Shown in pieces: positions 2,765 to 19,990 of a stretch of DNA of 64,000 bases (positions are counted from its first letter, which is position 1; the number at the start of each line of letters is the position of its first letter). The notes beneath the pieces are model-generated. The model had not been told where the DNA came from. It searched no databases and saw nothing but the letters and a program-made list of their open reading frames with translations. Position numbers and translations under genes: made by a program. This stretch comes from Candidatus Latescibacterota bacterium (GTDB lineage Bacteria; Latescibacterota; UBA2968; GCA-2709665). The stretch covers positions 2,752,001 to 2,816,000 of the forward strand of contig OZ241917.1 of assembly GCA_965203805.1 (NCBI GenBank), read 5' to 3'.

Positions 2765-2842
2765 GGCATGAAAAACGGGGATTCCGTTCCCGATCCATTG
2801 GAAGGAATCCCCATGCTATTCGTGCCTTCAATCGGCTCTTTG

Positions 2843-4000
2843 CTATAGCCGAGGGCGGCTGCCCGTCCCGTACCCCACGAGTTCCACGTATCCCCGCCCC
2901 ATTGGGATGCCATTCAGGCCGATGATCTCCACCGCGCCTTCCCAGTAGAACATGGACTTCATCAGGTCACTGCGATTCTCCTGGTCCGCCATCACGGGCC
3001 GGAGGAACATTCGCAATCCCTCGCCCGGGATCGCGACCTCCCATCGCGCGGGGTAGACCGCGTCGGTCTCCGGGCTCTCCCACGTCTCCGTCGCGCGAAT
3101 GGAAAACGCCTCCGGCACCAGGTAGCGGGCGTACCCGCCCGCCAATACCATCGTCCCCCGCGAAAAATCCACGGCGCCAGTCGTATCGCGAAGCATGTAC
3201 AGCATTGCCTCACGTCCATCGTCAAGCTGCAGGCTGAACCAGTCCCACCCCGCCTGGTGGGGTTCGAGTTGTTGCGACCCGAATTCCTTGTCCATCCAGC
3301 TCCGGCCGGTTACCGCCAATCGCTCATCGGCCAGCCTGATCTCGCCGGTCGTCGCCAGGCGCGTAAAGCTGTAATACTGGCTGGCGGACGACGGTCCCTG
3401 CCCCTTCCTGCTGTACCCGGCCGGTCCCTGAAACACCAGCGGCTTCGCGGGTCGGGTCGACAGCGAAAACGCGATTCCCTGCCGGCTGTCCGTCATCGAA
3501 AGATCGAAACCGAACCCGTTCCAACGCAGGGTCCACGTCCCGTCCGTACCCGCTGGCGCCCGGCTCCAGGCGATGAGCGTATCGGGATACGCGCCGAACC
3601 CGCCCAGCAGCGGCGTGACCCGGTAGATGACCTCGCTGAACCAATGCCGTCCCGTAGCCGGATCGCCGATGGCCGCGTGGCCCATGATCAGATCGCCGGT
3701 CGCCCATTCCGACGCCAGCGAAGGCGTACGGGGCAACATCCCGACCCTGAAGAAGGTGAACTGGTACCCGAAACGCCGGCCGTCCGCGGACGCCAGATGC
3801 CCCGTAAAGTACCACCATTCGGTCTTGTATCCAGCCCTGGCCCAGTGATCGCGCGGGAAGGACCACGCGTAATCGGGGCGCGCCGCCTTCCAGTCCCCGG
3901 CATGGACCGAAGTTGCGGCGGCCAGCAGGCAAAAAGCAAGCGCGACCCTAATTCTGTTAACCGACGAGGAGGCGCGCTTCAGTATCATGATCGATTTCAC
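2843..4000 (-). CDS. AttH/CrtC-like lipocalin-fold secreted protein
   Basis: Signal-peptide-like N-terminus; motifs FPRDH, TEWWYFTGHL, FGYQFTFFR, YYSFTRL, WMDKEF, GWDWFSLQL, YWEG, GYVELVGY. Start codon uncertain. Confidence 0.85.
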   Translation of the reverse strand: MKSIMILKRASSSVNRIRVALAFCLLAAATSVHAGDWKAARPDYAWSFPRDHWARAGYKTEWWYFTGHLASADGRRFGYQFTFFRVGMLPRTPSLASEWATGDLIMGHAAIGDPATGRHWFSEVIYRVTPLLGGFGAYPDTLIAWSRAPAGTDGTWTLRWNGFGFDLSMTDSRQGIAFSLSTRPAKPLVFQGPAGYSRKGQGPSSASQYYSFTRLATTGEIRLADERLAVTGRSWMDKEFGSQQLEPHQAGWDWFSLQLDDGREAMLYMLRDTTGAVDFSRGTMVLAGGYARYLVPEAFSIRATETWESPETDAVYPARWEVAIPGEGLRMFLRPVMADQENRSDLMKSMFYWEGAVEIIGLNGIPMGRGYVELVGYGTGSRPRL

Positions 4001-4015
4001 GGTTCTTCGACTCGC

Positions 4016-4735
4016 CTAACGAAATACGGAGCTGAAGCGTCTCTTGACGCGGGGCTTTGCTTTCGTTTCCGGTTCAGTTGGAGGTTCCCCTTCTGGTTCC
4101 GGCGGAAGATCCTCCTCCGAGGGTTCTTTGAGATTTGTCCGGACGACGACGGTACCGGCAACGAAGTCGTGAATAGCCCGGCGTCTTCTGTTCGTGAGCA
4201 TGGTAATTAACTCGGCCACATACCATGCAATGACGACCCCAAAAGCCCACGCGCCGGCCGTAGAGAACTCGCCGGACGGCCACGTTTCGTTCCTCATCCT
4301 CAGAGTTACAAGCTCGTACGTGTCATTGGCCACAAACGGGATCGTGAAGAGAATCGGGATGCAATCCCGAAGGAAGGCATGCCTGAACGATATGGCGCTG
4401 TAGGTTTTGGCGTCGACGATCCGAACTCGCGTGACCATCTTGCCGAGTGTCTGCCCAAACCTGCCATGCATGAATATCGAGTAAGCCCAGTGAGTTGAAT
4501 TGTACGTCAGAATAGCCGTGACGCACACCCAGATCGGGGCATCGAATCGAAGGACGTAGTAATGGATCGTGCTCAACGGCCAAAACACCATGCCGTCAAC
4601 AAAAACCGCCAGGAACCTTGGCCAGAACGTCAGATACCGTTTTTCGGGCGAAACGGTTCTGTTTTCGTATCGCCACAACGCGATTAACGATGGCACGAGG
4701 AAGACAACCAATAACGTCGAATCCGTTTCTGTCAT
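4016..4735 (-). CDS. RDD family membrane protein
   Basis: FWPRFLAVFVD, GQTLGKM..RVRIV, RRRAIHDFVAGTVVV; several TM segments. Confidence 0.85.
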   Translation of the reverse strand: MTETDSTLLVVFLVPSLIALWRYENRTVSPEKRYLTFWPRFLAVFVDGMVFWPLSTIHYYVLRFDAPIWVCVTAILTYNSTHWAYSIFMHGRFGQTLGKMVTRVRIVDAKTYSAISFRHAFLRDCIPILFTIPFVANDTYELVTLRMRNETWPSGEFSTAGAWAFGVVIAWYVAELITMLTNRRRRAIHDFVAGTVVVRTNLKEPSEEDLPPEPEGEPPTEPETKAKPRVKRRFSSVFR

Positions 4736-6189
4736 ACGGACTCACTTTTTCCAACCCCCAGGAAGCCTGCCCGCCCGCGGCGGAAGAGTTCCCGCACGTC
4801 TTCGCGCTGACGGTCGGTGTTGTAACGTCCCCAGGTGTCGATCCATTTCAGCGAGTCGTCGATGCCGTTAATAAAATACCGGGCGGAATCCACGCGTTCG
4901 GCGGAGGGACGGCCGCACGAAAAATAGACCGGACTGCTGTGGGCGTAGATGGACTGGTCGAAACTGTCGCGCCCGTCCCCCCAGAGCCGCGCGGCGATCC
5001 AGCCGTCGCGATCGACCTCCACGCGGTGGCGGACGGCGCCTTTGCGTCTGCCTTCCGCCTCGCTATCGCTGTGAATCACGCGGCCGTTCATCACAATCTC
5101 CACGCGATGAACGGGATAGAAGGACGTATAATTCGCCTCGACGTCGAGCGAACCGCCGTTGGGCAACTGAACGGTTGATCCCATCGGCTGATCGTTGACG
5201 CGCAGATCGATGGCGGGGCCATTGGTGATGAACGTATTGCCCGCCTTCATGCCGGCGATCCAGTTCTCGTAAGAGAACGTATCGCTGGTGTTGACGTACA
5301 CGCGGTTGTTGGAGCAGACGAACCAGTCCGTGCCGGTGGAAGCGGGCAGGGCGATTCCGCAGTTTAGCAGCTTGTACCAGAGATCGTATTCGGGGTCCAT
5401 CCAGAAGGGATCGAAGAGGTTAAAGGCGTCCAGCTTCCCCAGCACCGCGGCAACCGGGGCTTCCATCCCGCGGCCGTTGTGGCACCAGATGACAATGCCG
5501 CCCTGGTCGCGGGCCTCGTCGCAACAGAAGCACAGGGGAGGGTAGTCCGGGTCGAACTGCGCGGTGAGGATATGGCCGCGGCTGACGGGCTGGACGAGGT
5601 TCCGGATGTTGAGAAACATCACGTGTCCGTATCCGAAACCCCATGGCGAGTTTTCGCCGTAGTGGCGGTTCTCTTCGCCGATGTCCAGGACGTGATGGGC
5701 GGTGGTGAAGTCGTTCATCACGCCGATGGGATATTTGTTGCTGGCGTACGGAAGTTGCCTTCTGTCCAGAACGCTGACGGCGGTCACATTATAGCCTTCG
5801 ACGCCGCAGTCGATGGCCAGCCTGTCGTCGGGGCGCGTTTCCTTTTCGTCGTAGTGGATGTGGGTGTTACCGGGATACCAGTTGTGTTCCTGCGGGAAAT
5901 ACCACCGGTTCAGGACGATCTCGACGTCCTTCGCCCCGTGTTCGGGCATGTCGACAATCGTGCGCAGGGGCTCGTATTCGGTTCCGCGCTCCACCAGTAC
6001 GTCGGTACGGCCCCGACCCGTCCGGACCTCGAAGGAACCCTCGCTAAAGAAAAACGGCGTGCCGGGGCCCCGCTTGAGCACGGCTTCGCGTGGATGCGTA
6101 AAACGGCCGTCGGAAGTCAGCACGTGGACCTTGGCGTCGATTGGCTCGCCGGTCGCGCCGTCGACAATGTGCCCTCGCAGGATGCCCAT
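4732..6189 (-). CDS. CehA/McbA-like PHP-fold metallohydrolase
   Basis: N-terminal carboxypeptidase-regulatory-like domain; WYPGNTHIH, GEE, GHV, WCH, STGTD, FITNGP, AHSSPVY; ATG at 6189 with GGAG RBS. Confidence 0.78.
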   Translation of the reverse strand: MGILRGHIVDGATGEPIDAKVHVLTSDGRFTHPREAVLKRGPGTPFFFSEGSFEVRTGRGRTDVLVERGTEYEPLRTIVDMPEHGAKDVEIVLNRWYFPQEHNWYPGNTHIHYDEKETRPDDRLAIDCGVEGYNVTAVSVLDRRQLPYASNKYPIGVMNDFTTAHHVLDIGEENRHYGENSPWGFGYGHVMFLNIRNLVQPVSRGHILTAQFDPDYPPLCFCCDEARDQGGIVIWCHNGRGMEAPVAAVLGKLDAFNLFDPFWMDPEYDLWYKLLNCGIALPASTGTDWFVCSNNRVYVNTSDTFSYENWIAGMKAGNTFITNGPAIDLRVNDQPMGSTVQLPNGGSLDVEANYTSFYPVHRVEIVMNGRVIHSDSEAEGRRKGAVRHRVEVDRDGWIAARLWGDGRDSFDQSIYAHSSPVYFSCGRPSAERVDSARYFINGIDDSLKWIDTWGRYNTDRQREDVRELFRRGRAGFLGVGKSESV

Positions 6190-6219
6190 CGTAGACTCCA
6201 AGGTTGAACTTACGCCCGC

Positions 6220-7380
6220 CTACCCGCCGAAAGCTTTCGCAAAGATCAGAAAATCGCCGAATCCTATGTCGCCGTCCCCGTCAAGATCATATCCCGCGTC
6301 ATAGCCCGCATCGCCTCGATTCAGCCCGTAGTTCGCGGCAAACTGCACGAAGTCGGCAAAGTCGACGGCGCCGTTGCCATCGAAGTCCGCAATGGCGGTT
6401 GGAGGGGCGATGCGCGGCGCCAGATTCCACAGCACAATCGTGCTGTCCTCGCTTCCACTGGCGAGAATCCTCCCGTCGGGAGAAATCGCCACGCTGATGA
6501 CAGGACCTGTATGCCCTCGCAGCGTGGCTTTCTCCTGACCACTGGCCACGTCCCACAATCGAACCGTACGGTCTTCACTCCCACTCGCGAGTGTATTCCC
6601 GTCCGGTGAAAATGACACAGAAACGACGTCCCCCGTATGCCCGATTAACTGGGTTCTTCGTTGACCACTGGCCACGTCCCACAGGCGAATCGTAGCGTCC
6701 TCGGTTCCACCGGCGAGAATCGTTCCGTCCGGAGAGAACGCCACGGACGAAATCCCGCGTTGATGACGCCAGAACGTGGCTTTCTGCTGACCCTTCTCCA
6801 CGTCCCATAGTCGAATCACACCGTCACGTCCTCCACTGGCGAGCGTCTTCCCGTCAGGCGAGAACGTCACGTAATAGAGATTCATACCCTGCCCGCGGAG
6901 CATGGCTTTCTCCTGACCGCCGGCCACGTCCCACAATAGAATATCCACAAGACAGACTGCGAGCGTACTTCCATCCGGAGAGTACGACAAGGAGACCGGA
7001 ACACTTATATACCCCTGTACCGACGTCTTTTCCTTACGGCTGGCCACATCCCACAACCGCACGACTCCGCTGGCGCTGGCCAGGGTTCTCCCATCCGGCG
7101 AGAACGAAACGGCATAGACATACCATGTATTCCCCGTAAGCCTGGCCTGCTCCCGCCCAACGGCCACGTCCCACAATCGAATCGTGCGGTCCCAACTGCC
7201 ACTGGCGAGCGTACTTCCGTCCGGTGAGAACGACAAGGACCAAACCCGGCCGGTATGCCCTCGAAGTGTGGCGCCGCGTTCGGGAAGACTGATGGGGTTA
7301 TTGTCTTGAGCGAGGCTGGTCTGCGCCAGCAGGACACACACAAACAGGACGGCAAATTCGAATCCATAGCTCTTTTTCAT
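6220..7380 (-). CDS. Secreted WD40-repeat protein with C-terminal dockerin/EF-hand-like domain
   Basis: Signal peptide; about 7 GH...FSPDG..LASGS.D.T.RLWD repeats; tail DFDGNGAVDFADF...YDLDGDGDIGFGDFLIFAKAFG. Confidence 0.92.
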   Translation of the reverse strand: MKKSYGFEFAVLFVCVLLAQTSLAQDNNPISLPERGATLRGHTGRVWSLSFSPDGSTLASGSWDRTIRLWDVAVGREQARLTGNTWYVYAVSFSPDGRTLASASGVVRLWDVASRKEKTSVQGYISVPVSLSYSPDGSTLAVCLVDILLWDVAGGQEKAMLRGQGMNLYYVTFSPDGKTLASGGRDGVIRLWDVEKGQQKATFWRHQRGISSVAFSPDGTILAGGTEDATIRLWDVASGQRRTQLIGHTGDVVSVSFSPDGNTLASGSEDRTVRLWDVASGQEKATLRGHTGPVISVAISPDGRILASGSEDSTIVLWNLAPRIAPPTAIADFDGNGAVDFADFVQFAANYGLNRGDAGYDAGYDLDGDGDIGFGDFLIFAKAFGG

Positions 7381-7449
7381 AGGCCGACCCTATTTTTTCA
7401 AATGTGGACCTCTCCCCCAGCCCCGCCTTCATATCGCCTGTGCGAACGC

Positions 7450-8616
7450 CTACTTGCCGAACGCTCTGGCAAAGAGGAGAAAGTCGGCGAATTCAATAGC
7501 GCCGTTGCCGTCTATATCATAACCCGTATAGTATCCGACGTCGCCGAAACTCAACCCGAAATGCGCAGCAAGCTGTAAGAAGTCGGCAAAGTCAACGGCG
7601 CCATTGCCGTCGAAATCCGGATCGGCGGGCTGCGGGGTGATATGCGGGGACATATTCCACAGGACAATCGTGCCGTCCTTACTCGCACTCGCGAGAATCC
7701 TCCCGTCCGGTGAGAACGACACGGTCCCAACCCAATCCGTGTGTCCCCGGAGGGTGACCATCTCTTCTCCGCTGGCCGGATCCCACAAGCGGACCGTATG
7801 GTCTTCGCCTCCGCTGGCGAGAGTACTCCCGTCCGGTGAGAACGACAGGGCCGAAACCCAGCCCGTATGCCCCCGTAAATGCACCTTCTTCCGTCCGGTG
7901 GCCACGTCCCGCAATCGAACCGTATCGTAGTTGCCGGTACTGGCGAGAATCCTCCCGTCCGGCGAGAACAACACGGTCCCAACCGAGCTCGCATAATCCC
8001 AATATGTGGCTCTCTGCCGACCCGTTTCTGCGTCCCACAATCGAACCGTAGCGTCATTGCCTCCGCTTGCCAGAGTACTCCCGTCCGGAGACCACGCCAC
8101 GGAATAAGCACTGGGCGGCCCTCGCAGCCTGGCCGTCTCCCGACGGCTGGCCACGTCCCACAAATGAACATCTGCAAGACAGGCGGCGAGCGTACTTCCG
8201 TCCGGCGAAAACGTCAATTCAGAAAAGGCCCTCGCATGCCCCTCCAGCGGCTCCTTCTGCCGACCGCTGGCCACGTCCCACAATCGAACGTCTTCGTTGC
8301 TGCTGGCCAGGGTTTTCCCGTCGGGCGAGAACGCCACGGAATTGACAAGCCCCGCGTGCCCCGTCAGTCTGCCCTTCTCCCGAAGTGCGACCACGTCCCA
8401 CAATCGGATCGTCGTGTCATTGCCCCCACTGGCAAGCGTTCGCCCGTCCGGCGAAAACGACACGGACGAAACCCCTGAGGTGTGCCCCCGCAGCACAGCT
8501 TTCTCCCGCCCGTTGGCCGGCGATCCCCCCTCCTGCGAAAACGATAAGGAACCCGCATGCGCCGACAGGGCGCAGACTAACAAAAAGCAGAAAACAAACC
8601 TGTAACGCTTACTCAT
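7450..8616 (-). CDS. Secreted WD40-repeat protein with C-terminal dockerin/EF-hand-like domain (tandem paralog)
   Basis: Same architecture as 6220-7380; tail DFDGNGAVDFADFL...YDIDGNGAIEFADFLLFARAFG. Confidence 0.92.
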   Translation of the reverse strand: MSKRYRFVFCFLLVCALSAHAGSLSFSQEGGSPANGREKAVLRGHTSGVSSVSFSPDGRTLASGGNDTTIRLWDVVALREKGRLTGHAGLVNSVAFSPDGKTLASSNEDVRLWDVASGRQKEPLEGHARAFSELTFSPDGSTLAACLADVHLWDVASRRETARLRGPPSAYSVAWSPDGSTLASGGNDATVRLWDAETGRQRATYWDYASSVGTVLFSPDGRILASTGNYDTVRLRDVATGRKKVHLRGHTGWVSALSFSPDGSTLASGGEDHTVRLWDPASGEEMVTLRGHTDWVGTVSFSPDGRILASASKDGTIVLWNMSPHITPQPADPDFDGNGAVDFADFLQLAAHFGLSFGDVGYYTGYDIDGNGAIEFADFLLFARAFGK

Positions 8617-8739
8617 CGGTTAACTCCTTTACGATTTCAGATGACGGGATATTCACGAGCACTTCACGCCTTCCTGGCGTCAACCCGCCTATGAATACGA
8701 CAATCCGGACAGCCAGCAGATCGTGACGCACCGACCAAA

Positions 8740-8922
8740 ACCTGCAATGCGCGCACGTCCAAACCGAATCGCCGTGCGACTTTTAGCGGGTCAACTTCAT
8801 GCCGTGGCGAAGGGCGCGAATCCGTTCGGCGGTTGGGTCATCTACGATTCGGCACGCACATGGGCGAGCACTTCACCAAGTGCGGTCTCGATCGTATTTC
8901 CCAATGGAGTCTGTTCAGTCGT
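8740..8922 (-). pseudogene. Degraded XRE/YiaG-like (HigA-type) HTH antitoxin or regulator
   Basis: After RBS AAGGAA the start reads ACG. Pieces in different frames: TEQTPLGNTIETALGEVLAHVR / RIVDDPTAERIRALRHGMKLTR*K / ARRFGLDVRALQ, an XRE HTH with frameshifts and a stop. Confidence 0.7.
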
Positions 8923-9002
8923 TTCCTTGAATCCCAAACTGACCCTCCCAGTGTTGTGTCTCAACACCGAAGCGGCGGAGTCCAGATGAGGGCTGCGTGT
9001 TG

Positions 9003-11663
9003 TCAAGATTGGACCGGCTCCCAATTGAACCCTCGGATTTTCTCAATCAACTGTTCTCGAGCGTCGCGCCCGTCGACAGTTTTCTCCGCGACGATGAAGA
9101 GACCCTTCCCCTCGCTCGCTTTCTCCCATAGTTCGCCAATGGTGCGCTTTTCAGCGGTATCCATCCCATCAGCAATATGCGCGCCTTTGTATTCGACCAT
9201 CAAGAGGCGACTATCCGACAATTGCGCAACGAAGTCCGGATAGAACTTACCCGTCGCTGTCGGCAACCAGAACGAATCCGGATGACGTGCCACGTTTCGA
9301 ATCCAGTACGTGACTTCCGGGAGGCTGTCTATTATCTGAGCGCACTGGACCTCCTCACCCTCTTCAGCGCCGTCAAAGGCCGGAACGTTATCTGAACCCA
9401 AATAGTGCTTTCTCGGTATCCAGCGCCCGCGATAATGTTTTTGATCCCGGTACATTCCGGCTTGGAACGAGAATGCGGTATCGAACGAAACAGAAACTCT
9501 GGATTCGGGTGCAAATAGGTAGCTCTGGTAGACACTGTGCCGTTCCTGGAGCCGAATCGTGTTAATTTTGTCTTGGATCTTCCTGGCAAGCAGGTATTTG
9601 CACCGCATCAGCGCAGAGATGCGCAAGCTCCGTGCGTTAAGCAAATGGGCAACCAATTCGCGCAGCCATCTCAAGAGTTCGCGCTGGTGAATATCCATCT
9701 GGCGCACCTGTCGGTCGAGCCAAAGGACGAGTGCTTCTGGTGTCCACCCTTCCACGTCGACGTTCAGCGTCATTTGTTCCTCGGCGCTGGCGAAGCGGTA
9801 GGAAATGCGCCTGCCATCAAGGTCGATCTCAAAGCTGCGTGCCGTCTCATGGATCGTAAACTCGTGCTCATCAAACTTTGGAGAATGGTCGAGCAACGAC
9901 CATTCGTGATATTCCATGTACACGTCGGTATCGGCGAATTCAAGCTTCCCTTGGACATTCGACATCAAACGCGGAACCTTGAATTCCCGGCCCTGTTCGG
10001 CCGGTGAAACTTGATCCTTGACGTTGACGCGATAGTTCGCAACGGCATTGGCGAAAGCCTTTCTCTCTGGCCCAGGCAACTTCTCGCAAATAGCCTTCTC
10101 GCTGCTTTCGCTGATCCAGCCCGTAATCGCGATTTCGACCTTCCCGTCAGCCGTTTCGCGCACCAGCATTTTCTCGTGGTTCACCTCCTTGAGTGCATAC
10201 AAGACTTCGGTTTTCGCCGTGACCTCGTGAGCAAACACCGGCTCCGGCTCGTCCTGTGTGCGATAGAGGTCACCCTGGTCGTCGAATGTGTGCTGAACCT
10301 GTTCGATATTTTCCAGGGCCTCGTCTTCCTCAAAACCCATGGCCACCAGTTTGTCAGCAAGCCCACGCGCGGCCTGTCCAAAGGACGGTTCGGAAAGGAA
10401 GGCATAAGCCTTATTGAGATCTGCATCCTCTCGCCTCGTCGCGTACGGCATCCGAAGCACGCGACCGAGCAGCTGCTCCACGTCTTTCGCGCTCTGAATA
10501 CGCGACACGGAGCAGAAAACGTACGCGAACGAACAGTCCCACCCTTCCTTGAGCGCCTCAACCGTAATGAGGTACTCGATAGGACAGACCGGGTTGAAAA
10601 GGTCAATGCCGTCGAGCTGCCGCTGTTCGCCGGTTGCGACGGCAATCTTCTCTTCGGTTACATGCTCGACGTCAATCAGATGCGTTTTCAACGCCTGGAC
10701 CGGAACGTCCTGATTTCTCGCCTGCGCCTGGAAGAGGACGATTGGACGAATGTAGTCTGAGTCATCCCGGGCTTTTTCCGACAACGCGGCACGGGCCGCC
10801 ACCGCGCCGTTTACTGCGCTCTGCCAAGTGTCGTACTCGGAAAGTGCAATCGGCAGTTTGATCATCTCCTCACGCTTGATTTCGAGCGCGGAAACGCTGT
10901 GCAGAATGTTTGATCTTTTCTGTGGCGTAGCCGTAAACTCGATAATCCCGCACGGGTTTACTCGCGCCTGCATCTCCCTGGTTAGCCCGGTCACGGCGTT
11001 GTGTGCCTCGTCGACCACCATCAATGGGCGATGCAGATGCAGCAAGTTGGCAAAGGAGAATTTGACAGTCCCGTTATTCAGCACCTCCAGACCAGCCGCT
11101 GTGTGTTGCGCCATGGCGAAGTGCGGTTCCATCTCTTCGCTGTGCGCGTAGACCTTGCGTCCTTCTGTGCTTTTTACCCTCAACGTCTGGATCGTACCGA
11201 CCACAATACAACATCGGTCCCGCAGGTCGTGAGGGCGGATGTGTGTGAAATCTGAAATGTCAAATATCCGCACTCGACCATCGAAGGCCTCGTCGAGTAC
11301 CTGCCGATACGCATGGCGTGTGTTCTTCAGTGCGTCGACCGTCTGCCGACGTATGGTATTCGTCGGCACCAGCCACAGGACCAACGGATAGTCCCTCTCA
11401 ATCCAGGTGCCTTGGGCAATGGAAACGGAATGCGCAGCCAGGATGGTCTTGCCACCACCCGTGGGCAGACGCAGGCAGATATAGGGGACGTCCGGCAATT
11501 CCAATAAGGGTACATATGCTCCGCAATATCCGCCAAGCCGCGCGGCCTGCTCCGGTTCCCTCGTTATCGCTTCGTAGGCGTTCTTCGGCCCGGCGACACG
11601 CGCCTCCTCAAAAAACCGGCGCAGGACTGAGAGTGTCTCGATCTGAAATCGTTTGAGTTGCAT
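9003..11663 (-). CDS. res: Type III restriction endonuclease Res subunit (SF2 helicase + PD-(D/E)xK nuclease)
   Basis: LPTGGGKT (Walker A), VVDEAH, EFTATP, ALKEGWDC, EQLLGRVLR, C-terminal FYPDF...VEYKG; uninterrupted 886 aa. Confidence 0.92.
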   Translation of the reverse strand: MQLKRFQIETLSVLRRFFEEARVAGPKNAYEAITREPEQAARLGGYCGAYVPLLELPDVPYICLRLPTGGGKTILAAHSVSIAQGTWIERDYPLVLWLVPTNTIRRQTVDALKNTRHAYRQVLDEAFDGRVRIFDISDFTHIRPHDLRDRCCIVVGTIQTLRVKSTEGRKVYAHSEEMEPHFAMAQHTAAGLEVLNNGTVKFSFANLLHLHRPLMVVDEAHNAVTGLTREMQARVNPCGIIEFTATPQKRSNILHSVSALEIKREEMIKLPIALSEYDTWQSAVNGAVAARAALSEKARDDSDYIRPIVLFQAQARNQDVPVQALKTHLIDVEHVTEEKIAVATGEQRQLDGIDLFNPVCPIEYLITVEALKEGWDCSFAYVFCSVSRIQSAKDVEQLLGRVLRMPYATRREDADLNKAYAFLSEPSFGQAARGLADKLVAMGFEEDEALENIEQVQHTFDDQGDLYRTQDEPEPVFAHEVTAKTEVLYALKEVNHEKMLVRETADGKVEIAITGWISESSEKAICEKLPGPERKAFANAVANYRVNVKDQVSPAEQGREFKVPRLMSNVQGKLEFADTDVYMEYHEWSLLDHSPKFDEHEFTIHETARSFEIDLDGRRISYRFASAEEQMTLNVDVEGWTPEALVLWLDRQVRQMDIHQRELLRWLRELVAHLLNARSLRISALMRCKYLLARKIQDKINTIRLQERHSVYQSYLFAPESRVSVSFDTAFSFQAGMYRDQKHYRGRWIPRKHYLGSDNVPAFDGAEEGEEVQCAQIIDSLPEVTYWIRNVARHPDSFWLPTATGKFYPDFVAQLSDSRLLMVEYKGAHIADGMDTAEKRTIGELWEKASEGKGLFIVAEKTVDGRDAREQLIEKIRGFNWEPVQS

Positions 11664-11685
11664 GGATCAGTACCGAAAATCCTCT

Positions 11686-12219
11686 CTAAATCGCAGGCGA
11701 CTCTGAGAGTACCGCGGCTTCTTTGAGGCCGAGGTCGTACAGCAGATCCCTGGCTCTCTCGATCCGTCCACCCGCCGCTTTGAGAGGCTTGCGCATTTTC
11801 AACTCTTCAATTGGCCGGTCGCCATAGCCATTTTCCTTCAGAAATACGATAGTAGCGGCGAGTTCCAATACGACATCCGATGCATCCGCCATTTTCTGTA
11901 GTCGTTCCCGAGCATCGGCAGCTGAAAGTTCACCCAAGTTATCCGGATAGGCATCAGTGGCTTTCTTCTTGAAACTCAGGTAAGAGACATCGTACCGGCC
12001 GAGCTTTTGCTTGATTTCAATCCGATCTTCGGCCTGTGCGTCGGCCCATCCATCCGCAAGCTCAAAGGAATACGGACCGTGATGGTAATAGAAGAACGAG
12101 ATCCCGAATTCCGCCCCGCAGCGATCCAGCAGGTAGGCTTCCCTCTGCAGCCGGGTCTGACCGTTCAATTCGTGACCGCTCAGTTTAACCAAATCGACTA
12201 CGACGTCTTTTGCGTTCAT
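11686..12219 (-). CDS. YwgA / SocA(Panacea)-like winged-helix protein
   Basis: GQTRLQREAYLL and FFYYHHGPYSFEL motifs, LELAATIVFL; start overlaps the HD gene stop (ATGA). Confidence 0.7.
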   Translation of the reverse strand: MNAKDVVVDLVKLSGHELNGQTRLQREAYLLDRCGAEFGISFFYYHHGPYSFELADGWADAQAEDRIEIKQKLGRYDVSYLSFKKKATDAYPDNLGELSAADARERLQKMADASDVVLELAATIVFLKENGYGDRPIEELKMRKPLKAAGGRIERARDLLYDLGLKEAAVLSESPAI

Positions 12220-13574
12220 TTGTTGATCTCCTCCATCATTCGAGTGATTTCTTCTATTTGGCGTTGTTCCGGGGCGTAAACCCGCTGAATACGCTCTACG
12301 TCACGAAGCGCAGGTACAATGCTCGACATGTTGGCAATATCCTTTGGTTCGTGATCTTCGGCGCGCGTCTTTACGAGTATTTTATTGAGTGCCGAAGAAT
12401 CCTCAAAACTGTACCATTCGTAAAGCGTGACCGAAGCGTCGTCGAACAAAAGGCTGTCGAAACCCGAGTATCGATCACTCAATTCTCGCCGGAAGCGGAG
12501 ATATAGATTACCTTGTGCGTCGCCCCGTGCCTGCATTCCGACATCCAGGCACTTGTAAAGACGGCGTTCGCGCAGACGGCTTGCTAACTCAGCGATGTGG
12601 GTGTGGGATGAAGAAGCAAGAGCGGACAGGGTTGTCCAAACTGAGGCATCGTCAAGTTCGAGATACGAACCCAACGACGGCGATTCGTCCGTAAAATACC
12701 GCAAGAATGGCTCTTGCTGTGCCAGTTGGCTCTCTCGACAATCCTGCGTGAAGGTTCTTAGCATAGCGCCAAGCATCTTCTCGGCCGCCCGTGTAGTTTT
12801 GTGCATATAGACCGCTTTGTAGAGGCGGAAACGGGCCTCCAGATATTCCTCCGCCACCTGCAGACCCTTGAAATTGAGATATAGACAAGGTACTCTTACC
12901 GGAGCATCCTCATCTACAGTGACCGAGCCGACCTCCAGACAGTCGAACAGCCAGTCACGATCGAGATGCGCGAACTCGACTCCAGTCATCAGGCGGTCCC
13001 GCTGCAGGTAGTCGAGTCGGTCGGCGTCGAACTGACTGGAAACCACAGTGGCGTAGATGTCCTTTGGCTCTTCCTCCTTAATAACCGCGCTAATGTCTCC
13101 CGGCAGCTCCGTGTCCACCTCTTGCAATATGCTCTTGACCTCCGTATCTCCCTGGAGGATCTCCGCACTCCAGTCTTCATGGCGTTTCCTTCCGCCCGTG
13201 GCCTGAACAACCTGTTCGAAGACGTGACTCAAAGGCCCATGTCCGATATCGTGCAGTAGCGCTGCTAACAGCGCTACCCTCGCTCGTTCCTTGTCAAACT
13301 CCTTGTTTTTCAGGCGGCGTCTGATCACTTCAATGAGTAGCCGTGCAGTGTGATAGACACCGACAGCGTGTGCGAATCGGCTATGTGTCGCGCCGGGATA
13401 CACCAGGTCGGAGAATCCCAAATGACGGATTTGGCGCAACCGCTGAAACTCGGGCGTGTTGAGCAAACGCCAAGCGATTTCATCTGTCTCGTTCTGGGCT
13501 TTGTCATTTCCGTCCCCGAACACAATTAGGCCATGAACCGGGTCGCGGATGCGCCATGTTTCACTATCGATCAT
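12216..13574 (-). CDS. HD-domain phosphohydrolase, SAMHD1/YwfO/EF1143-like dNTP triphosphohydrolase family
   Basis: IRDPVHG, EFQRLR.I..LG, YPGATHSRFAH, ALLHDIGHGPLSH.FE, DADRLDYLQRD, ARFRLYKAVYMHKT; ATG at 13574 follows GAGGAG. Confidence 0.9.
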   Translation of the reverse strand: MIDSETWRIRDPVHGLIVFGDGNDKAQNETDEIAWRLLNTPEFQRLRQIRHLGFSDLVYPGATHSRFAHAVGVYHTARLLIEVIRRRLKNKEFDKERARVALLAALLHDIGHGPLSHVFEQVVQATGGRKRHEDWSAEILQGDTEVKSILQEVDTELPGDISAVIKEEEPKDIYATVVSSQFDADRLDYLQRDRLMTGVEFAHLDRDWLFDCLEVGSVTVDEDAPVRVPCLYLNFKGLQVAEEYLEARFRLYKAVYMHKTTRAAEKMLGAMLRTFTQDCRESQLAQQEPFLRYFTDESPSLGSYLELDDASVWTTLSALASSSHTHIAELASRLRERRLYKCLDVGMQARGDAQGNLYLRFRRELSDRYSGFDSLLFDDASVTLYEWYSFEDSSALNKILVKTRAEDHEPKDIANMSSIVPALRDVERIQRVYAPEQRQIEEITRMMEEINK

Positions 13575-14298
13575 CCACTCTCCTCTTGAATGCTCCTCGG
13601 TTTTTATCAGCGTCACGTAGAATTACAACCACGCCCAGACGCATTCTGCCGTTTCATTTGCTTACCTTCACATCATAAGGTGTTTGCTTGAAAACGATGC
13701 CCTCACGGTCGAGAGTCGCAGGCGTTAAGCGCGACTGCTCGCCATATACTGTCAGTGGACCGTCGAAACTCGCATCGCGCCGCGCGATCTCCGTACGAAT
13801 AGTCGCCAGAGTCCTTCGGGTCAAGACATTGCCGCGGCCCGGTTGCCCGTCACCGAGGATGCCGTCGTACAGCAGAGCGTAGGCGCGACCATCGTGCAGA
13901 CCGAGGAGTGGCGAAGCGTCGTTGCCGAGCCACGGACTCCCCGTCTCGCTGAAATAGATATGGGCGGCTAACACAGAAAAGTTTATATCCGATCGAATAT
14001 GCCCGTCCTCGTCGAAGACCGGCGGCCCTAGCCGATAGAAGCGAAACCCACCTCCGCCGTGCCAATTAACGATCTTGGAGATGCCACCCTGTTCGCCGTC
14101 AATAACTTTCCTCAAACGCGGGACACAATGTGTCACAGCGTGCTCACCCATTTCTATGCCGATGTACCGCCGACCCATCTTGTGCGCCACCGCTGCCGTG
14201 GTACCGGAGCCGAGGAAGGAATCGATGACCAGATCACCAGGACTAGTAAAGAGTTCCAAGACACGCTTAATGAGTGCCTCCGGCTTTTTACCCTTCGG

Positions 14299-14587
14299 CA
14301 CTGCTGTCCAAGAACCGTCGGATTCTCAGAGATAAGGTTCGAAATATAGCTTCAATTGGCGATTTTGGACGGGTTTGACCCGGATAATGAAAACCAGGTT
14401 GCCATCGTCTGCGCAATGCTGTCCAAGAACAAAGTGACTCATCCAGTGGCCATAATCGTGCTGTTCCCGTCTCATTAAGCCCGTGAAATAGGCACTTTTT
14501 GAAACTCACGCTACCTTGGTCGAAGCGCTGCTTCGCGGAAGTGAACCAGATGCTGTCCAAGACAGAAACCGATTTTGGACAGGTGTG
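14299..14587. mobile_element. 289-bp non-autonomous miniature element (MITE-like) with 9-bp target duplication
   Basis: ACCCTTCGG duplicated at 14290-14298 and 14588-14596; ends CACTGCTGTCCAAGAA and (reverse complement) CACACCTGTCCAAAAT; extra internal copies of the ends. Confidence 0.88.
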
Positions 14588-14974
14588 ACCCTTCGGGAAT
14601 TTTACGCCACCTTCATTGTGAAGGTTATTCGAACGGAGGTCGTCCCAAAGATTGGTTAGCGGTTCGCCTGATACCAACTCACCATCAATATCTTTGAGTT
14701 TGTCTCGATAAAAAAGCCAGCGCTTACCGTTACACAGGTAAATGTCAGAATAACCCTGCCGAACTTGACAATATACGCGGTTCGGATTATTCCGGGAGAT
14801 GTCGATCATTTTTCGGGTCTCTTGACCTACACCATCATACGCTGGCGGGACCGGCTGAACCACCCTGTCTGCATTCCCTAGCACGAATTCGTCAAGCGCA
14901 TTCTCATACTGATCTCCAAGACGCCTCTTCTGTTCGCTAGAGGTCTCGTTTGATGACTTAGAGAAAGCCCTTAA

Positions 14975-16655
14975 CCCGACCTATTCATGAAATTGACCGG
15001 AACAGTATTTTTGGAAGTAGGAAGTGTTCTGTAGAAGAGAAAACAATAGAATGAGGTGTTGTTGGCGGGTTGATGAGTGATTTTGGTTGGGCCGTCAGCA
15101 TCAAGGGGTGTCGAGTTCGTGAATTTGTGGTTTGAGAGGACGGACGGATGCCTTGGTCTTACCTGGCGGCTATGATCAAGGGATGGCGGGACCTGCGTGA
15201 AGCGGCGTTATGGAACTGCCATTGCCAAATTACAGAGGATGGTGTCATAGAGGTGTTTCAAGGGAAATGAGGTTGGCAAATGGAGTTTGATTTTGGTTTT
15301 GAGTTCGGACACGCTCCCTGCGACTTTGAGGATGCGATTCTGAATGGTATTAAACTGGGCGTGCGTCCATTGGGTGGTCCGGAGTCCTTTTTCGGTAAGG
15401 GTGTGCATCAAGACATAAGCGGCACTATGCAGCAGGAGACGGAAGTGATTGGCTTCGAAGGTGTGGCAGGAGGTGCGATCGGAATGGAGAAAGGTTTTGT
15501 GATTCTTGATGAAGTTTTCCATCCTGCCGCGCGCACAATAGACGGTTTTGTAGATGAATGAGGGCTGGCTACTTTTCAGGTTGGTGACGACAAAGCGTGT
15601 ATTGGCTTGCCCCGAGGCGGTGATTTCAGCTTTGTAGATGATGCGTCTTGGCACGGCCCAAGTCGTTGCCTGGTAATCGAAACTGGCAAATAACTGCACG
15701 GGCTGTCCGGTTTCCCGATACCGGGCCTTTGCCTGCTCGATCAACGCGTGTCCCCGTTGTGCAAGCCTGGCATTGCCCGTCTGTCCCAGCGTAAAATACA
15801 CCGCTTGCTCGTCGCAAAAGTCGTGGACCTCAGGACAGGAAAAATGGCCATCGCCACGTAAATAGATACCCACGTCCGGCCACGCCTCACGAAGCATTTT
15901 CACCAGTCGCTTGAGAATGCTGACAATCTGTTTGCCGGTAGGACGGGCGCCCGGACGCAAAAGCGTCGTGATCAGTCTTCCTGTCCGGCCTTCATAAATG
16001 TGCAAGGGACAATAACAGCGTTCATTGTAATAGCCATTGAAAAACGACAACTGTTGCTTGCCGTGAACCTCGTCATCGGTGTCATCGATATCCAGAACGA
16101 CCCCTTCGGGAGGCCTATCGTAGGACGCGATGAATCCGTCCACAAGGGCCTCGGCAATGCGATATAAGTCCCGGCGACGAATGCCGTTTTCCAATCGACT
16201 CATCGTGGGTTGGCTGGCCAACGGCGCCCCTGATATCGGCAACCGATCACAGGCCGCCTTGAACGCAGGGTCAAAGCGCAGCAAATTGCAATCGTTCGCA
16301 TCCTCATACGCGCACGCGATCTGAAAGACACGCTGGCTGATCAGATCCGCCATCGGGTGATCCACGTAACTGGGATGCCGACGGTCCGGCAACGCCTCGA
16401 CGATCCGAGACAGGATGCCGTTTTTGGACTCCACCTCTCGAAGCAGCATCAAACCCATATCGCTGGTGAGCACACCGCCATCGAAGACCGCTTCTACCTG
16501 CTTGCCAGAAATACTTGCGAAAGGAAGTGCGGCTTGTTTATCTTGAACTTCCACGGTAGTTTCCTCCTGTTTCATTGTGTTATGGTTATTTGCGTAACCA
16601 CAATATAATACAATGACTTGGGTATGGAAACTACCTTTTTTGTGAATAATTGGGG
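14975..16655 (-). mobile_element. IS1380-family insertion sequence (1681 bp)
   Basis: TTAA duplicated at 14971-14974 and 16656-16659; imperfect IRs CCCGACCTATTCATGAAA / CCCCAATTATTCACAAAA. Confidence 0.93.
15208..16554 (-). CDS. IS1380-family DDE transposase
   Basis: FDGG.LTSD.G, YEDANDC..LR.DP, LASQPTMSRLEN, LDIDDTDD..HG.QQ, RGDGHF, YCARGRMENFIK; GTG at 16554 follows AGGAGG (alternative ATG at 16575). Confidence 0.93.
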   Translation of the reverse strand: MEVQDKQAALPFASISGKQVEAVFDGGVLTSDMGLMLLREVESKNGILSRIVEALPDRRHPSYVDHPMADLISQRVFQIACAYEDANDCNLLRFDPAFKAACDRLPISGAPLASQPTMSRLENGIRRRDLYRIAEALVDGFIASYDRPPEGVVLDIDDTDDEVHGKQQLSFFNGYYNERCYCPLHIYEGRTGRLITTLLRPGARPTGKQIVSILKRLVKMLREAWPDVGIYLRGDGHFSCPEVHDFCDEQAVYFTLGQTGNARLAQRGHALIEQAKARYRETGQPVQLFASFDYQATTWAVPRRIIYKAEITASGQANTRFVVTNLKSSQPSFIYKTVYCARGRMENFIKNHKTFLHSDRTSCHTFEANHFRLLLHSAAYVLMHTLTEKGLRTTQWTHAQFNTIQNRILKVAGSVSELKTKIKLHLPTSFPLKHLYDTILCNLAMAVP

Positions 16656-17279
16656 TTAAGAGCGGAATTAGCCTCCACTTTGAATATTCATCTTCGAAGT
16701 TTTCTATGAAGGAAGAATATCTGACGTCTCGATTTCGTTTCGTAAAGACCCGATTTGGCCTCCAATGCCTAGACTTATCCCGAGCATACATAACTATGTA
16801 ATTCGTAACTGTAACCACACCGGGATTGATCGCTTTGTGCCCGACTGCTGCAGCCTGACGAAATGTGCATAAATTGATGCGGTTTTTCCTTCCAAAGATC
16901 TCATCCAGTATAACGATGCAGTAGGCAAGTTCTTCATCGTCAAGGTGAACGACAATTGTACCGGTCGGAGCAAGCAAATCGCGTAGCAACTCAAGGCGGG
17001 GGCACATCATGCCGAGCCAGATTGAGTGTTCCATATTGTCGTCATAGTGCTGAAACGCCTGACCCGTGTTGAATGGTGGATCAATGTATATACAATTCAC
17101 CTGCCCGGCAAAGAAAGGCAGAAGCGCCTTCAGTGCTTGCAGATTATCACCCTGGATGAGCAGATTACCTTCGTCCAATTTCCCGGTGGAAAGGTCGGAG
17201 GCTTCTTCCAGCAGTCGAAAGGGCACCTGTGATGTAACTTGAATGTCGGCTTCTCGTGTCAACCAGCTAAGGGTTGGCA

Positions 17280-18500
17280 TCAGCTATCCTCCTCAGTTAT
17301 TCCCGACATGGCTTCTTCGTACACGGCAATCCATTTATCGGCTTCTTTTTCCGTGTAGGCCCCCGTAACGGCTTCACTGTATCCTGCCGGTAGTTCATCT
17401 CTCTTCGGCTGACCAATGTGCGGTTGCAACTTCCCTCGAAGCTTTTCTGCTCCTTCGTCAGGCAAGTCTTTGGCGAAGGAGTCCACTTGCTCCCGACTCA
17501 GGTCACCCGCGAAGATTACGTCGTGTAGTTCGGTTTTTTTGCCAATTTGATTCCGCATACGATCTGCAAACTTGTGAGGTGCACGGCCACCACATACACC
17601 CTGTAGTTGCGCTTGGAAGAGATCGGCCCCTTGCAGGTGCACCCCGGTAAATCTGGCGCCTTGCAAACATGCTAGGTATAGCCTGGCGCCTTGCATCTGC
17701 GCGCCAAAGAGCTCGGCGCCTATCAGGCACGCCGTGAAAAGTTGAGCCCCCTGCATGTGCGCCTCAATAAAATCAGCCGCCTGCAGGTGTGCCATTTCAA
17801 GATTAGCCCCTTGCAGATGCGCCTCCCGAAAATTGGCTCTTTGCAGGTGTGCCTTATAGAAAATGGTCCCTTGCAGGTGCGCATTTGCCAGGTCAGCCTT
17901 TTCCAAATGCGCTTCCCTGACGTCCGCACCGTTCAGGTAGCTTTCCTTTAAGTTTACGTGGAGACCTCTGAAGATCTCATGGTTCTTAACGAACAGCAGG
18001 GTCAGTAGACTCTGCACTTCCTCCGAGGGTTTCGACTTTTGCTTTTTCCGATATTCATCCTCGCCTGTCGTCTGACGAATATGAGCGCAGAGAATGTCCT
18101 GTACCGTCTGTCTCAATGCGGCAGTATCGTCCGCCAGATGGACGAGTTCGTAGGCCCCGCCCAGCCGAACTGATTCGGATACGTGTCCCAGATGTTCAAT
18201 GGCATTCTTCATGCGCTCTTGCAGCAGTCCTTGTTCAGCGGATACAGTTCTATCCTCCATCGCTTTTGCACGTCTGTTAGAAGCATGAGCTTGCAGGGCG
18301 ATCAGAATTCCGCCCATGGCTATTCCAACGAACTTTAGGATTTCAGATTTTTCGGAAACTCCAAGATGCTCAGAGACCTTTGTCTCGAAACTATCGAAGA
18401 AAAGAACACCCACGAAAACCGCGAGAGTCAGAACAAGCACGGCGATCAACGTGTTCTGAAGAGTGCAATGTCCGGTAATCACATAACTAAGGCGTTCCAT
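17280..18500 (-). CDS. Membrane-anchored pentapeptide-repeat protein
   Basis: Two N-terminal TM helices, AIEHLGH..ESVRLGGAYEL domain, A(H/Q)LQGA(N/D)L repeats; stop overlaps the mod ATG (TGATG). Confidence 0.88.
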   Translation of the reverse strand: MERLSYVITGHCTLQNTLIAVLVLTLAVFVGVLFFDSFETKVSEHLGVSEKSEILKFVGIAMGGILIALQAHASNRRAKAMEDRTVSAEQGLLQERMKNAIEHLGHVSESVRLGGAYELVHLADDTAALRQTVQDILCAHIRQTTGEDEYRKKQKSKPSEEVQSLLTLLFVKNHEIFRGLHVNLKESYLNGADVREAHLEKADLANAHLQGTIFYKAHLQRANFREAHLQGANLEMAHLQAADFIEAHMQGAQLFTACLIGAELFGAQMQGARLYLACLQGARFTGVHLQGADLFQAQLQGVCGGRAPHKFADRMRNQIGKKTELHDVIFAGDLSREQVDSFAKDLPDEGAEKLRGKLQPHIGQPKRDELPAGYSEAVTGAYTEKEADKWIAVYEEAMSGITEEDS

Positions 18501-18564
18501 AACTGACCTCGTAGGAATTCAAATTGCATATCGTGCAATACATCCGTCTGCCCTGATCTCGCCA

Positions 18565-19827
18565 TCAGCCTTCCTCCTCCGACTCGGCCGCGGTGGCATC
18601 CCCGTATTCCGCGATCCACTTTTCGGCTTCTTCGTCGGTGTAGGCGCCAACGACCGCGCCACAGTGTTCCGGAAGTTCGTAGGACGTCGTCTTGCCGACG
18701 TGGGGCGTCAACTTCTCCCTTAAAGCGTTCGCGGTTTCGTGGTACATCCCGTCCACAATGGACTCCACCTCCTCCAGTGTCATGCCGCCACCGAAAATCG
18801 CCCCGCTCAGGTCGGTCTCTTCGCCGATAGACTGTGCGATTCGCTGCTCGAAGGAGTCGGGGTAATCCACGTGACTCCTTACGCCCTGGAACTGCGCCTC
18901 CGTGAGATCCGCGCCCTGCAGGTTCGCCCCGACAATGAAGGCGCCTTGCAGATGCGTGCGGGACAGTACGGCGCCGCGCAACGTCGAACGGGCAAGATCG
19001 GCCCCGTGGAGATTCGCCCGGGAAAGGCTCGCGGCATCGAGTCGCGCACCAACCAGGTCGGCGCCCTGCAGCCTCGCCCATGAGAGACCGGCGCTCTGCA
19101 GGTGCGCCCACGACAGGTCCGCGCCCTGGAGTTGCGCCCCAACCAGGTCCGCGCCCTGCAGCCTCGCCTCCGCGAGATTTGCGCCGCAAAGGTACGCGGC
19201 GCACAGCGTGGCGCCATTCAACCAGCTTCCCTGCAGGTCGATTTGAAGACCTTCGCAGAACCCGCGACGGGAGGCGAACAGCAGACTGAGCAGGCTCTGG
19301 ACCTCCACCGAAGGATTCGACCTGTGCGTTCTCCGATATGTGTCCTGTCCCGTGGTACGGCGTATATGCGAGCAGAGAATGTCCAGCACCGGCTGTCGCA
19401 GCGTTTCAGTATCCTCCGCAAGGTGGAAGAGTTCATAAGCGCCGCCCAGGCGAACGGCTACCGACTCGTGCCCCAGGTGTTCGACGCCGTTGTGCAGGCG
19501 TTCATGTCTCCGCCCCTGCTCCGCGTCGCGCCTTGCCAGCGCCACCTCCGTTGCGGCCCTGGCCTGCTCAGAAGCAGCCTCGGCCTGTGCCTTCGCGACC
19601 GCTTCCATTTCCCTGGCGCGCTTATAGGCCATAAGTGCGTTCAGCGCTACCAGGAGACCCGCGACGCCGATGCCGAAGAACTTAAGCGTTTCGGTTTTCG
19701 GGTATAGACCCAGAACCGCGGATATTTGCGTCCCCGCGTAAGGAATGAACAGGAGACACACGAGGGCGCCCAGCGCAAGGACGAGCAGGGCAATCAGGAT
19801 GTTCTGCAGGATCGTGAAGAGATTCAT
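18565..19827 (-). CDS. Membrane-anchored pentapeptide-repeat protein (tandem paralog)
   Basis: True start MNLFTILQ at 19827 after GGGAGG; same domains as 17280-18500, including the shared C-terminus GAYT..EA.KWIA.Y. Confidence 0.88.
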   Translation of the reverse strand: MNLFTILQNILIALLVLALGALVCLLFIPYAGTQISAVLGLYPKTETLKFFGIGVAGLLVALNALMAYKRAREMEAVAKAQAEAASEQARAATEVALARRDAEQGRRHERLHNGVEHLGHESVAVRLGGAYELFHLAEDTETLRQPVLDILCSHIRRTTGQDTYRRTHRSNPSVEVQSLLSLLFASRRGFCEGLQIDLQGSWLNGATLCAAYLCGANLAEARLQGADLVGAQLQGADLSWAHLQSAGLSWARLQGADLVGARLDAASLSRANLHGADLARSTLRGAVLSRTHLQGAFIVGANLQGADLTEAQFQGVRSHVDYPDSFEQRIAQSIGEETDLSGAIFGGGMTLEEVESIVDGMYHETANALREKLTPHVGKTTSYELPEHCGAVVGAYTDEEAEKWIAEYGDATAAESEEEG

Positions 19828-19990
19828 AGGGTCCTCCCGTTTAAATGGCGGTATTCGAAGGTGAGATCCGACCGTCTGCCTGCGCCCCCGATATGCGAGA
19901 ATTCGGAGCAGCATGGCGACCGGGTCGCGATGCTGGAAATATCCCGCCACATTCTCTCGTTGGCAAACAGAATCCGAGGTGCGCCGCGCT

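Follow-up and report, generated by a model that had tools for sequence, protein, structure and literature searches.

Why does a predicted nucleotide-degrading enzyme, together with a small protein of its own, sit inside a restriction-modification (RM) operon? The question is raised by a stretch of 64,000 nt from Candidatus Latescibacterota bacterium (contig OZ241917.1 of assembly GCA_965203805.1, positions 2,752,001-2,816,000; hereafter the window, with coordinates counted within it), in which two genes separate mod from res, the genes of a type III RM system. One encodes an HD-domain protein predicted to be a deoxynucleoside triphosphate (dNTP) triphosphohydrolase (hereafter the HD protein), and the other a 177-aa protein that we call the partner. 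An original prediction, made from the letters of the window, had put the pair forward as a candidate anti-phage module. Here we establish the gene anatomy of the locus, the family and fold assignments of both proteins, their repeated embedding in RM operons, their status as optional cargo and the purifying selection that acts on them. Our preferred reading, held tentatively and with slightly less than even confidence, is that the pair works as a dNTP-depletion module, regulated by the partner and associated with RM systems, and is a candidate anti-phage system.

Anatomy of the HD-partner cassette

The pair and the intact restriction gene that follows it are encoded as listed here:

12216..13574, minus strand: HD gene, 452 aa, predicted dNTP triphosphohydrolase of the SAMHD1/EF1143 type (Pfam HD and HD_assoc_2; Protein Data Bank (PDB) entry 2o6i)
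11686..12219, minus strand: partner gene, 177 aa, predicted winged helix plus helical domain, resembling the C-terminal domain of DarG and YwgA (PADLOC DarG, E 5.3e-6; model match 7yk3)
9003..11663, minus strand: res, type III restriction subunit gene, intact, 886 aa (Pfam ResIII, E 8.6e-14; PADLOC REase_III, E 1.5e-172, residues 2-875)

The remains of mod (13663-17280), the HD gene, the partner gene and res follow one another on the minus strand in one shared orientation. Plus-strand positions 12216-12219 read TCAT, which is ATGA on the minus strand, where the ATG of the partner overlaps the TGA of the HD gene; the two intact, coupled genes between mod and res that had been predicted are borne out by their positions and sequence. 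Both ATGs are preceded, at a distance of 5-14 nt, by AGGAG-like Shine-Dalgarno sequences, and res starts 22 nt past the stop codon of the partner. A promoter and terminator scan of 8800-17500 returned sites no more frequent than in shuffled sequence. Since homologues occur in many genomes and pairwise ratios of nonsynonymous to synonymous substitution (dN/dS) are low, comparison of sequences identifies HD and partner as real genes rather than chance open reading frames (ORFs).

The HD enzyme

The HD protein scored above the Pfam cut-offs for both HD (41.5 bits, cut-off 22) and HD_assoc_2 (42.2 bits, cut-off 23.1). Among proteins of solved structure, Enterococcus faecalis EF1143 (2o6i; E 6.6e-42, residues 32-437 against 53-447) is closest to it, and two structural-genomics HD proteins and then SAMHD1 (about 1e-17) come next in the PDB ranking. 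EF1143 is described as a characterized dNTP triphosphohydrolase (PMC3190883). The RDPVHG, QRLR and YPGATH motifs and the metal ligands named in the original prediction are all present, as are HD (H108 D109) and DADRLDY, and an alignment of 36 family members shows no variation at H64, H108, D109, H112, H117, H132, D185, R186 and Y189. The protein combines the metal ligands and catalytic histidines of the SAMHD1/EF1143 type with full-length similarity that includes the HD-associated region, in agreement with its predicted SAMHD1-like character. These assignments indicate that the enzyme most likely hydrolyzes dNTPs to deoxynucleosides and triphosphate.

Membership of the Dgt-type dGTPases was not supported: the HD protein reached 26.8 bits against the NCBIfam model TIGR01353 (cut-off 152.35) and 17-21 bits against the other NCBIfam dGTPase models (cut-offs 383-439), and the PADLOC dGTPase profile matched residues 36-124 only (E 3.3e-4). 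By sequence, the protein belongs to the EF1143/YwfO-like branch and not to the Dgt-type dGTPases. The genome of the window encodes two further paralogues with HD and HD_assoc_2 domains (contig positions 667281-667964, L184, and 5697450-5698160, L185), which are 35-39% identical to the HD protein over the catalytic core and belong to ORFs 537 and 466 aa long.

The partner protein

No Pfam family matched the partner even at E ≤ 10, and neither Macro nor PF13274 was found. The partner belongs to a family of stand-alone proteins of about 170 aa, represented by 77 clusters in a word search and by 2182 representatives at E ≤ 1e-3 (125 at E ≤ 1e-30) in a profile search. Nearly all of these homologues are unnamed, and one (45% identity) is annotated by the Joint Genome Institute (JGI) as 'uncharacterized protein YwgA'; the tentative link to YwgA consists of this annotation and of the pairing with HD.

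In the confident AlphaFold2 (AF2) model of the partner (predicted local distance difference test (pLDDT) score, 91.2), a winged helix precedes a helical domain. The top Foldseek match was 7yk3, DarG in the DarT-DarG complex (E 2.1e-3, template modeling (TM) score 0.59 over the whole chain), and a VIA structure search returned the same entry (Z 11.7, root-mean-square deviation 4.6, 157 of 187 residues aligned) ahead of generic winged helices (Z 6.3). On the predicted structure, the single outstanding match is the C-terminal domain with which DarG binds and neutralizes the DarT toxin. Similarly, sequence profiles pointed to the C-terminal region of DarG only: the PADLOC DarG profile matched at positions 167-292 of 329 (E 5.3e-6), and the NCBIfam DarG profile at positions 188-300 of 338, although with 18.3 bits against a cut-off of 250. 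The only PDB sequence match of the partner-family profile was again 7yk3, at a non-significant E of 0.54, through a QK..Y...F..YGPYS motif.

The original prediction had likened the partner to SocA/Panacea antitoxins. This likeness is weakened: besides the missing Pfam match, hhalign against nine Panacea proteins from related genomes gave a weak match (31.7% probability over 43 N-terminal columns), and PF13274 appeared in 13% of the members of one low-ranked ESM Atlas cluster (rank 19, score 0.91), likewise a weak signal. Kinship with Panacea/SocA is weakly suggested by these matches, and the relative that can be demonstrated is the C-terminal domain of DarG. Panacea (PF13274) genes are themselves common in the window's genome and its relatives (L170-L181), occurring in 24 of the 31 genomes searched, with two of these genes in the window's genome.

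A partner-profile search for longer proteins (327-2000 aa) found no fused forms, which is weak evidence, and no second match to the partner was found anywhere in the window's genome. One locus carries a partner homologue without an HD gene (L030:6451-10516), at the end of an operon that opens with an AAA_21/AAA_15 ABC-type ATPase and includes two more unknown ORFs; there, the homologue is start/stop-coupled to an unknown 138-aa ORF. Because of this coupling in the absence of HD, the DarG/YwgA-like domain may serve other effectors too.

Embedding in restriction-modification operons

We collected 80 loci through the partner and scored their contexts with purpose-built profiles, with representatives checked by Pfam. 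Long 'HD' ORFs (for example 1102 aa in L048) and an apparent clustering of hsdM with HD proved to be artefacts of ORF extension and single linkage, which is why the contexts were re-scored with profiles. An HD gene, intact or broken, lies directly upstream of the partner in 74 of the 80 loci. The contexts were distributed as follows:

mod-HD-partner-res (type III): 7 of 80 loci
hsdR-hsdM-HD-partner-hsdS (type I): 14 of 80 loci
pair directly after hsdS: 3 of 80 loci
hsdM or hsdS fragments beside the pair: 3 of 80 loci
type I system nearby, pair not embedded: 4 of 80 loci
no RM genes detected by profiles: 49 of 80 loci

The pair is nested in type III and type I RM operons, as PrrC-like guardians are, in 27 of the 80 loci, so the embedding noted at the window recurs, and in two RM types. 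In both of them the cassette follows the methyltransferase gene (mod in type III, hsdM in type I). In a maximum-likelihood tree of 57 intact pairs, all 21 RM-embedded rows fall in one clade of 42 rows (Shimodaira-Hasegawa-like approximate likelihood ratio test (SH-aLRT), 100), which by record titles spans five phyla: Latescibacterota, Acidobacteriota, Spirochaetota, Rhodothermota and Pseudomonadota. Within this clade the type III rows form one subclade and the type I rows another, and the RM/non-RM label requires at least 10 changes on the tree. A pair scored as non-RM (L020/L191) retains a 20-residue Res remnant right after the partner, indicating that some lone pairs are decayed embedded pairs.

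At one type I locus, the hsdS fragments that follow the first HD-partner pair surround a second partner-like copy, 48% identical to the window partner (L048:11559-12053). Distant HD homologues (34-40% identity) on four metagenome contigs (L099, L107, L109 and L117) stand directly after a small Mod-like N6/N4 methyltransferase gene; no partner is detectable there, and large proteins without Pfam families follow HD. Judged by gene order, these contigs represent a second, separate link of the HD family to DNA methyltransferases. Apparent methyltransferase-HD fusion ORFs in L099, L107 and L109 were rejected, as the Mod-like matches lie in another reading frame and Pfam finds HD domains only.

An optional cassette under purifying selection

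Among 25 loci with close Res homologues (72-87% identity, same phylum), the pair is present in three and absent from 22, and in eight of the 25 the mod and res alignments end 12-17 nt apart, leaving an empty junction. Since mod directly abuts res in these related loci, the RM system needs no cassette, and by this comparison the cassette is an insert of about 1.95 kb at the mod-res junction, dispensable for RM. Other loci (L198-L204, L210, L213-L215) carry different inserts at this junction, of about 150-190 bp, 610-650 bp or 1.3 kb; these 0.15-1.3 kb inserts contain short ORFs only (one of 154 aa, in L200), with no similarity to HD or partner. The junction looks like an insertion hotspot.

Occurrence in related genomes is patchy: five of 41 relatives have the partner, and 10 of the 168 genomes of the phylum have a close HD. 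Taken with the cross-phylum clade, the pattern marks the HD-partner pair, as far as sequences tell, as a self-contained, horizontally mobile, optional cassette. Both genes are under purifying selection: pairwise dN/dS was 0.09-0.21 for HD and 0.22-0.41 for the partner, similar to the 0.12-0.18 of res.

The RM host of the cassette has decayed in the window, where mod survives in fragments:

16660..17280, minus strand: N-terminal fragment of mod (PADLOC MTase_III, E 9.6e-57, residues 1-209 of ORF 15208-17280)
14972..16659, minus strand: insertion sequence in mod, about 1.69 kb, with a DDE transposase at about 15223-16515 (Pfam DDE_Tnp_1_4, E 5.4e-152, residues 256-686 of ORF 15208-17280; boundaries inferred from the Mod pieces)
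14588..14971, minus strand: middle fragment of mod, corresponding to residues 118-245 of a relative's Mod, 86% identity
14299..14587, no strand assigned: insert of about 290 bp in mod, probably a small repeated element, occupying the gap between Mod pieces (an ORF across the insert matches two other places in L006)
13663..14298, minus strand: C-terminal fragment of mod, corresponding to residues 243-454 of the relative's Mod (Pfam N6_N4_Mtase, E 1.4e-19; PADLOC MTase_III, E 4.2e-69)

Adjacent Mod and Res genes, the mark of a type III RM system, are found at the locus (PADLOC REase_III, and MTase_III on the mod fragments). The Mod protein of the relative aligns to the window in three pieces (17007-16660, 14971-14588 and 14298-13663). 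The DDE_Tnp_1_4 transposase is in frame with the N-terminus of mod, giving a 690-aa ORF. The translated sequence of the other insert (about 290 bp) recurs at two other places in the related locus L006, which makes this insert a probable small mobile repeat. As mod is interrupted twice, we judge the type III RM system of the window to be inactive.

A similar state was observed in three further loci (L011, L012 and L013), where an intact pair stands beside a res with a frameshift or truncation and a mod that is broken or has almost disappeared. The intact pairs in these loci and in the window, beside decayed RM genes, support maintenance of the pair independently of RM, and together with the low dN/dS they uphold the suggestion of independent selection made in the original prediction.

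These observations bear on whether the pair might be an accessory of the RM system itself, for example by depleting dNTPs to slow replication when methylation lags, which would spare unmethylated host sites without any action on phage. The constant position right after mod or hsdM in both RM types speaks for this explanation, as do the four distant HD homologues behind a Mod-like methyltransferase gene. However, 22 of the 25 loci with close Res homologues do without the pair, hence it is not needed for RM function; the pair also persists under purifying selection beside dead RM genes, and it occurs far from any RM genes. We consider an accessory role of this kind very unlikely.

The RM island of the window has a lower guanine-cytosine content (0.47-0.57 over 8500-18500) than both flanks (0.58-0.66), consistent with horizontal acquisition. 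Tandem paralogues border the island on either side: WD40-repeat proteins (6220-7380 and 7450-8616, within 214-8616) on one and pentapeptide-repeat proteins (17280-18500 and 18565-20202, within 17280-20202) on the other. Relatives of both also border the island in related genomes.

Contexts without restriction-modification genes and patterns of loss

Several observations weigh against a defense role linked to RM. The original prediction had treated a mainly housekeeping setting of homologous pairs as evidence against itself, and this setting was found in part: 49 of the 80 loci show no RM genes by profile and several of them lie beside uvrA, rarA/mgsA-like or anmK genes, but 27 of the 80 are RM-embedded. 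Distant Hyphomicrobiales branches (35-45% identity), which include cultured strains, are essentially all in non-RM, ordinary chromosomal contexts. Directly upstream of the pair, uvrA occurs in three non-RM loci (L074, L081 and L082), and further non-RM neighbors are an MgsA/RarA-type ATPase, AnmK and metabolic enzymes. The enrichment of defense genes that the original prediction had proposed to look for did not appear: no PADLOC family was hit by two or more of the 110 proteins encoded next to the 21 close-clade loci without RM genes, and the non-RM loci of this clade are on that ground not defense islands.

Furthermore, most of the loci stem from a small number of assembly projects and share ancestry, and the pair may have entered RM operons independently no more than two or three times. 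PLSDB plasmids yielded no copy, and viral contigs a single match. In one locus the decay runs in reverse, with mod and res intact and HD deleted or dead (L014). More broadly, while both genes are intact in 56 of the 80 partner-found loci, HD is in pieces beside an intact partner in 18 (two of them cut by a contig end) and missing beside an orphan partner in four; both genes are broken in the remaining two.

The first group of these observations would fit a housekeeping pair that controls dNTP pools or sanitizes nucleotides by removing non-standard dNTPs for replication and repair, some copies of which were captured between RM genes and which has no part in defense. Such a function is backed by the distant Hyphomicrobiales clades, by uvrA upstream of the pair in L074, L081 and L082, and by non-RM neighbors that are not defense genes. 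It is also backed by the breadth of the pairing. Distant HD homologues from metagenomes (28-44% identity) have a YwgA-like neighbor in 23 of 80 loci (upstream in five), which makes the HD plus YwgA-like combination old and broad by gene neighborhood and, with the 74 of 80 partner-found loci, supports the conserved pairing named in the original prediction. In B. subtilis, YwfO has been proposed to sanitize modified nucleotides, as described in PMC4993169. Because the distant Hyphomicrobiales branches are essentially all non-RM, the pair may originally have served to control dNTP pools as a housekeeping function, and the ancient HD-YwgA-like pairing probably began as a housekeeping pair.

Other features of the window's clade speak against this reading. 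The clade is patchy, as the counts among relatives (five of 41) and in the phylum (10 of 168) show, and crosses five phyla, and the genome already contains two other HD paralogues. Moreover, embedding in two unrelated RM types, after the methyltransferase gene and in 27 of 80 loci, makes chance capture hard to invoke. For the cassette of the window we consider a purely housekeeping role unlikely, if far from negligible.

The patterns of gene loss raise a further possibility, that the pair is a toxin-antitoxin addiction cassette in which HD arrests growth as a toxin and the partner acts as the antitoxin, and which by post-segregational arrest stabilizes itself and incidentally the RM locus, without sensing phage. 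The fold of the partner is that of the DarT-binding domain of DarG, and both genes are short, with coupled translation. In 22 of the 80 partner-found loci an intact partner accompanies a lost or broken HD, an asymmetry that is biased, because these loci were found through the partner. A set found through HD gave the same direction: of 10 genomes of the phylum, seven have both genes intact, two have only HD broken and one has lost the integrity of both, and in no genome is the partner the sole broken gene, although 10 genomes are a small sample. The asymmetry fits a costly enzyme and a harmless regulator. No plasmid copy was found in PLSDB, though addiction modules are typically common on plasmids. 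Addiction also overlaps with our preferred reading, as many toxin-antitoxin systems are anti-phage as well. As a complete account of the cassette, we regard addiction without phage sensing as rather improbable.

Proposed mechanism

In the partner-regulated dNTP-depletion module that we favor, the HD enzyme of the SAMHD1/EF1143 type would degrade dNTPs, and the partner would bind it, either holding it off or setting the condition under which it fires. Lodged just after the methyltransferase gene of an RM operon, the cassette would be co-expressed with the RM system as a second layer of defense. Infection, or loss of restriction, would free HD, and the resulting dNTP depletion would stall phage DNA replication. 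The window genome would represent a case in which the RM host is already dead and the cassette is still maintained. The binding of HD and partner, inhibition by the partner, the trigger and the anti-phage effect are all inferred by analogy with DarG and from the precedents of PrrC and Clover.

A more specific version can be built on the partner fold. The DarG domain reportedly mimics single-stranded DNA, as the title of Deep et al. 2023 has it. The partner could likewise be a nucleic-acid mimic or decoy that silences the dNTPase and is displaced by anti-restriction factors or by loss of methyltransferase or restriction activity; the freed enzyme would then drain dNTPs, possibly including modified phage dNTPs, and the pair would be a new guardian of RM. 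We give this version a low probability. If it were true, the domain of the DarG/YwgA type would serve as an off-switch of general use, recruited to toxic enzymes as unrelated as ADP-ribosyltransferases and dNTPases, and the uncharacterized YwfO-YwgA pairs of many bacteria would be regulated likewise.

Comparison with known systems

The pair does not correspond to an already named system in PADLOC. PADLOC-DB 2.0.0 recognizes only the type III RM genes at the locus, neither HD nor the partner, and the best match to one of its phage defense candidates (PDCs) was an unconvincing one of the partner to PDC-M19A (E 0.005). We found no description of the HD-partner pair in the literature, a search that did not extend to the 145 candidates of Payne et al., and no useful literature on YwgA. 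Payne et al. (bioRxiv 10.1101/2024.01.29.577857) used 'guilt by embedding' to predict defense genes, and their PDCs resemble the cassette in that genes nested in RM, BREX or DISARM systems were taken as likely defenses. The screen covered type I RM, BREX, DISARM and Hma but not type III RM, and the main text makes no mention of HD, dNTP, SAMHD1 or DarG.

PrrC, nested in a type I locus, is described as an 'RM guardian' (PMC12707154). Like PrrC in EcoprrI, the cassette adds to an RM operon an extra, co-oriented effector that is dispensable for restriction, and in type I loci it lies between hsd genes. Unlike PrrC, the cassette comprises two genes, one of them for a small partner of its own, and its effector is a predicted dNTPase instead of an anticodon nuclease. 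The cassette is also found in type III operons and at a distance from RM genes; activation by inhibition of RM would, for the cassette, be an analogy.

In Clover, a dNTPase effector is reported to be restrained by its partner (PMC12265719). Clover (CloA dNTPase and CloB nucleotidyltransferase) and the cassette both consist of two genes, one of them for an HD-superfamily dNTPase. The partner of the cassette, however, is a 177-aa protein with a predicted winged helix and helical domain and without a nucleotidyltransferase family match, and any restraint in the cassette would act between proteins and not through a synthesized nucleotide.

With DarTG, the cassette shares the predicted fold of the partner, that of the C-terminal DarT-binding domain of DarG, to which the DarG profile matches are limited. 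We take the gene order of darT-darG, with the enzyme first and the coupled partner second, to be the same as in the cassette. In contrast to DarTG, the partner has no macrodomain and there is no DarT; the coupled gene upstream encodes the HD enzyme.

The Dgt-type anti-phage dGTPases and human SAMHD1 set HD-superfamily dNTP depletion against viral DNA synthesis, and their catalytic motifs are common to the HD protein of the cassette. Unlike the Dgt-type dGTPases, this protein falls in the EF1143/YwfO-like branch and has a dedicated partner. Within that branch, EF1143 is the closest characterized enzyme, and the pairing seen in B. subtilis YwfO with YwgA is widespread. YwfO-YwgA pairs are regarded as chromosomal and are uncharacterized, whereas the clade of the cassette is patchy, crosses phyla and is RM-embedded.

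The HD-partner pair would combine two known kinds of system, nucleotide-depletion defense and the RM-embedded guardian, in a cassette of about 1.9 kb. Its chief interest lies in the pairing of a DarG antitoxin domain with an unrelated enzyme and in the occurrence of the same cassette in two RM types. If our preferred reading is confirmed, the nucleotide-depletion defenses would gain a SAMHD1-branch dNTPase that is regulated by a protein, and the DarG antitoxin domain would prove to have been reused for a completely different enzyme. The widespread, uncharacterized YwfO/YwgA-type pair would gain its first functional handle, and the 'RM guardian' idea, so far represented by PrrC and PARIS, would come to include type III systems and dNTP depletion.

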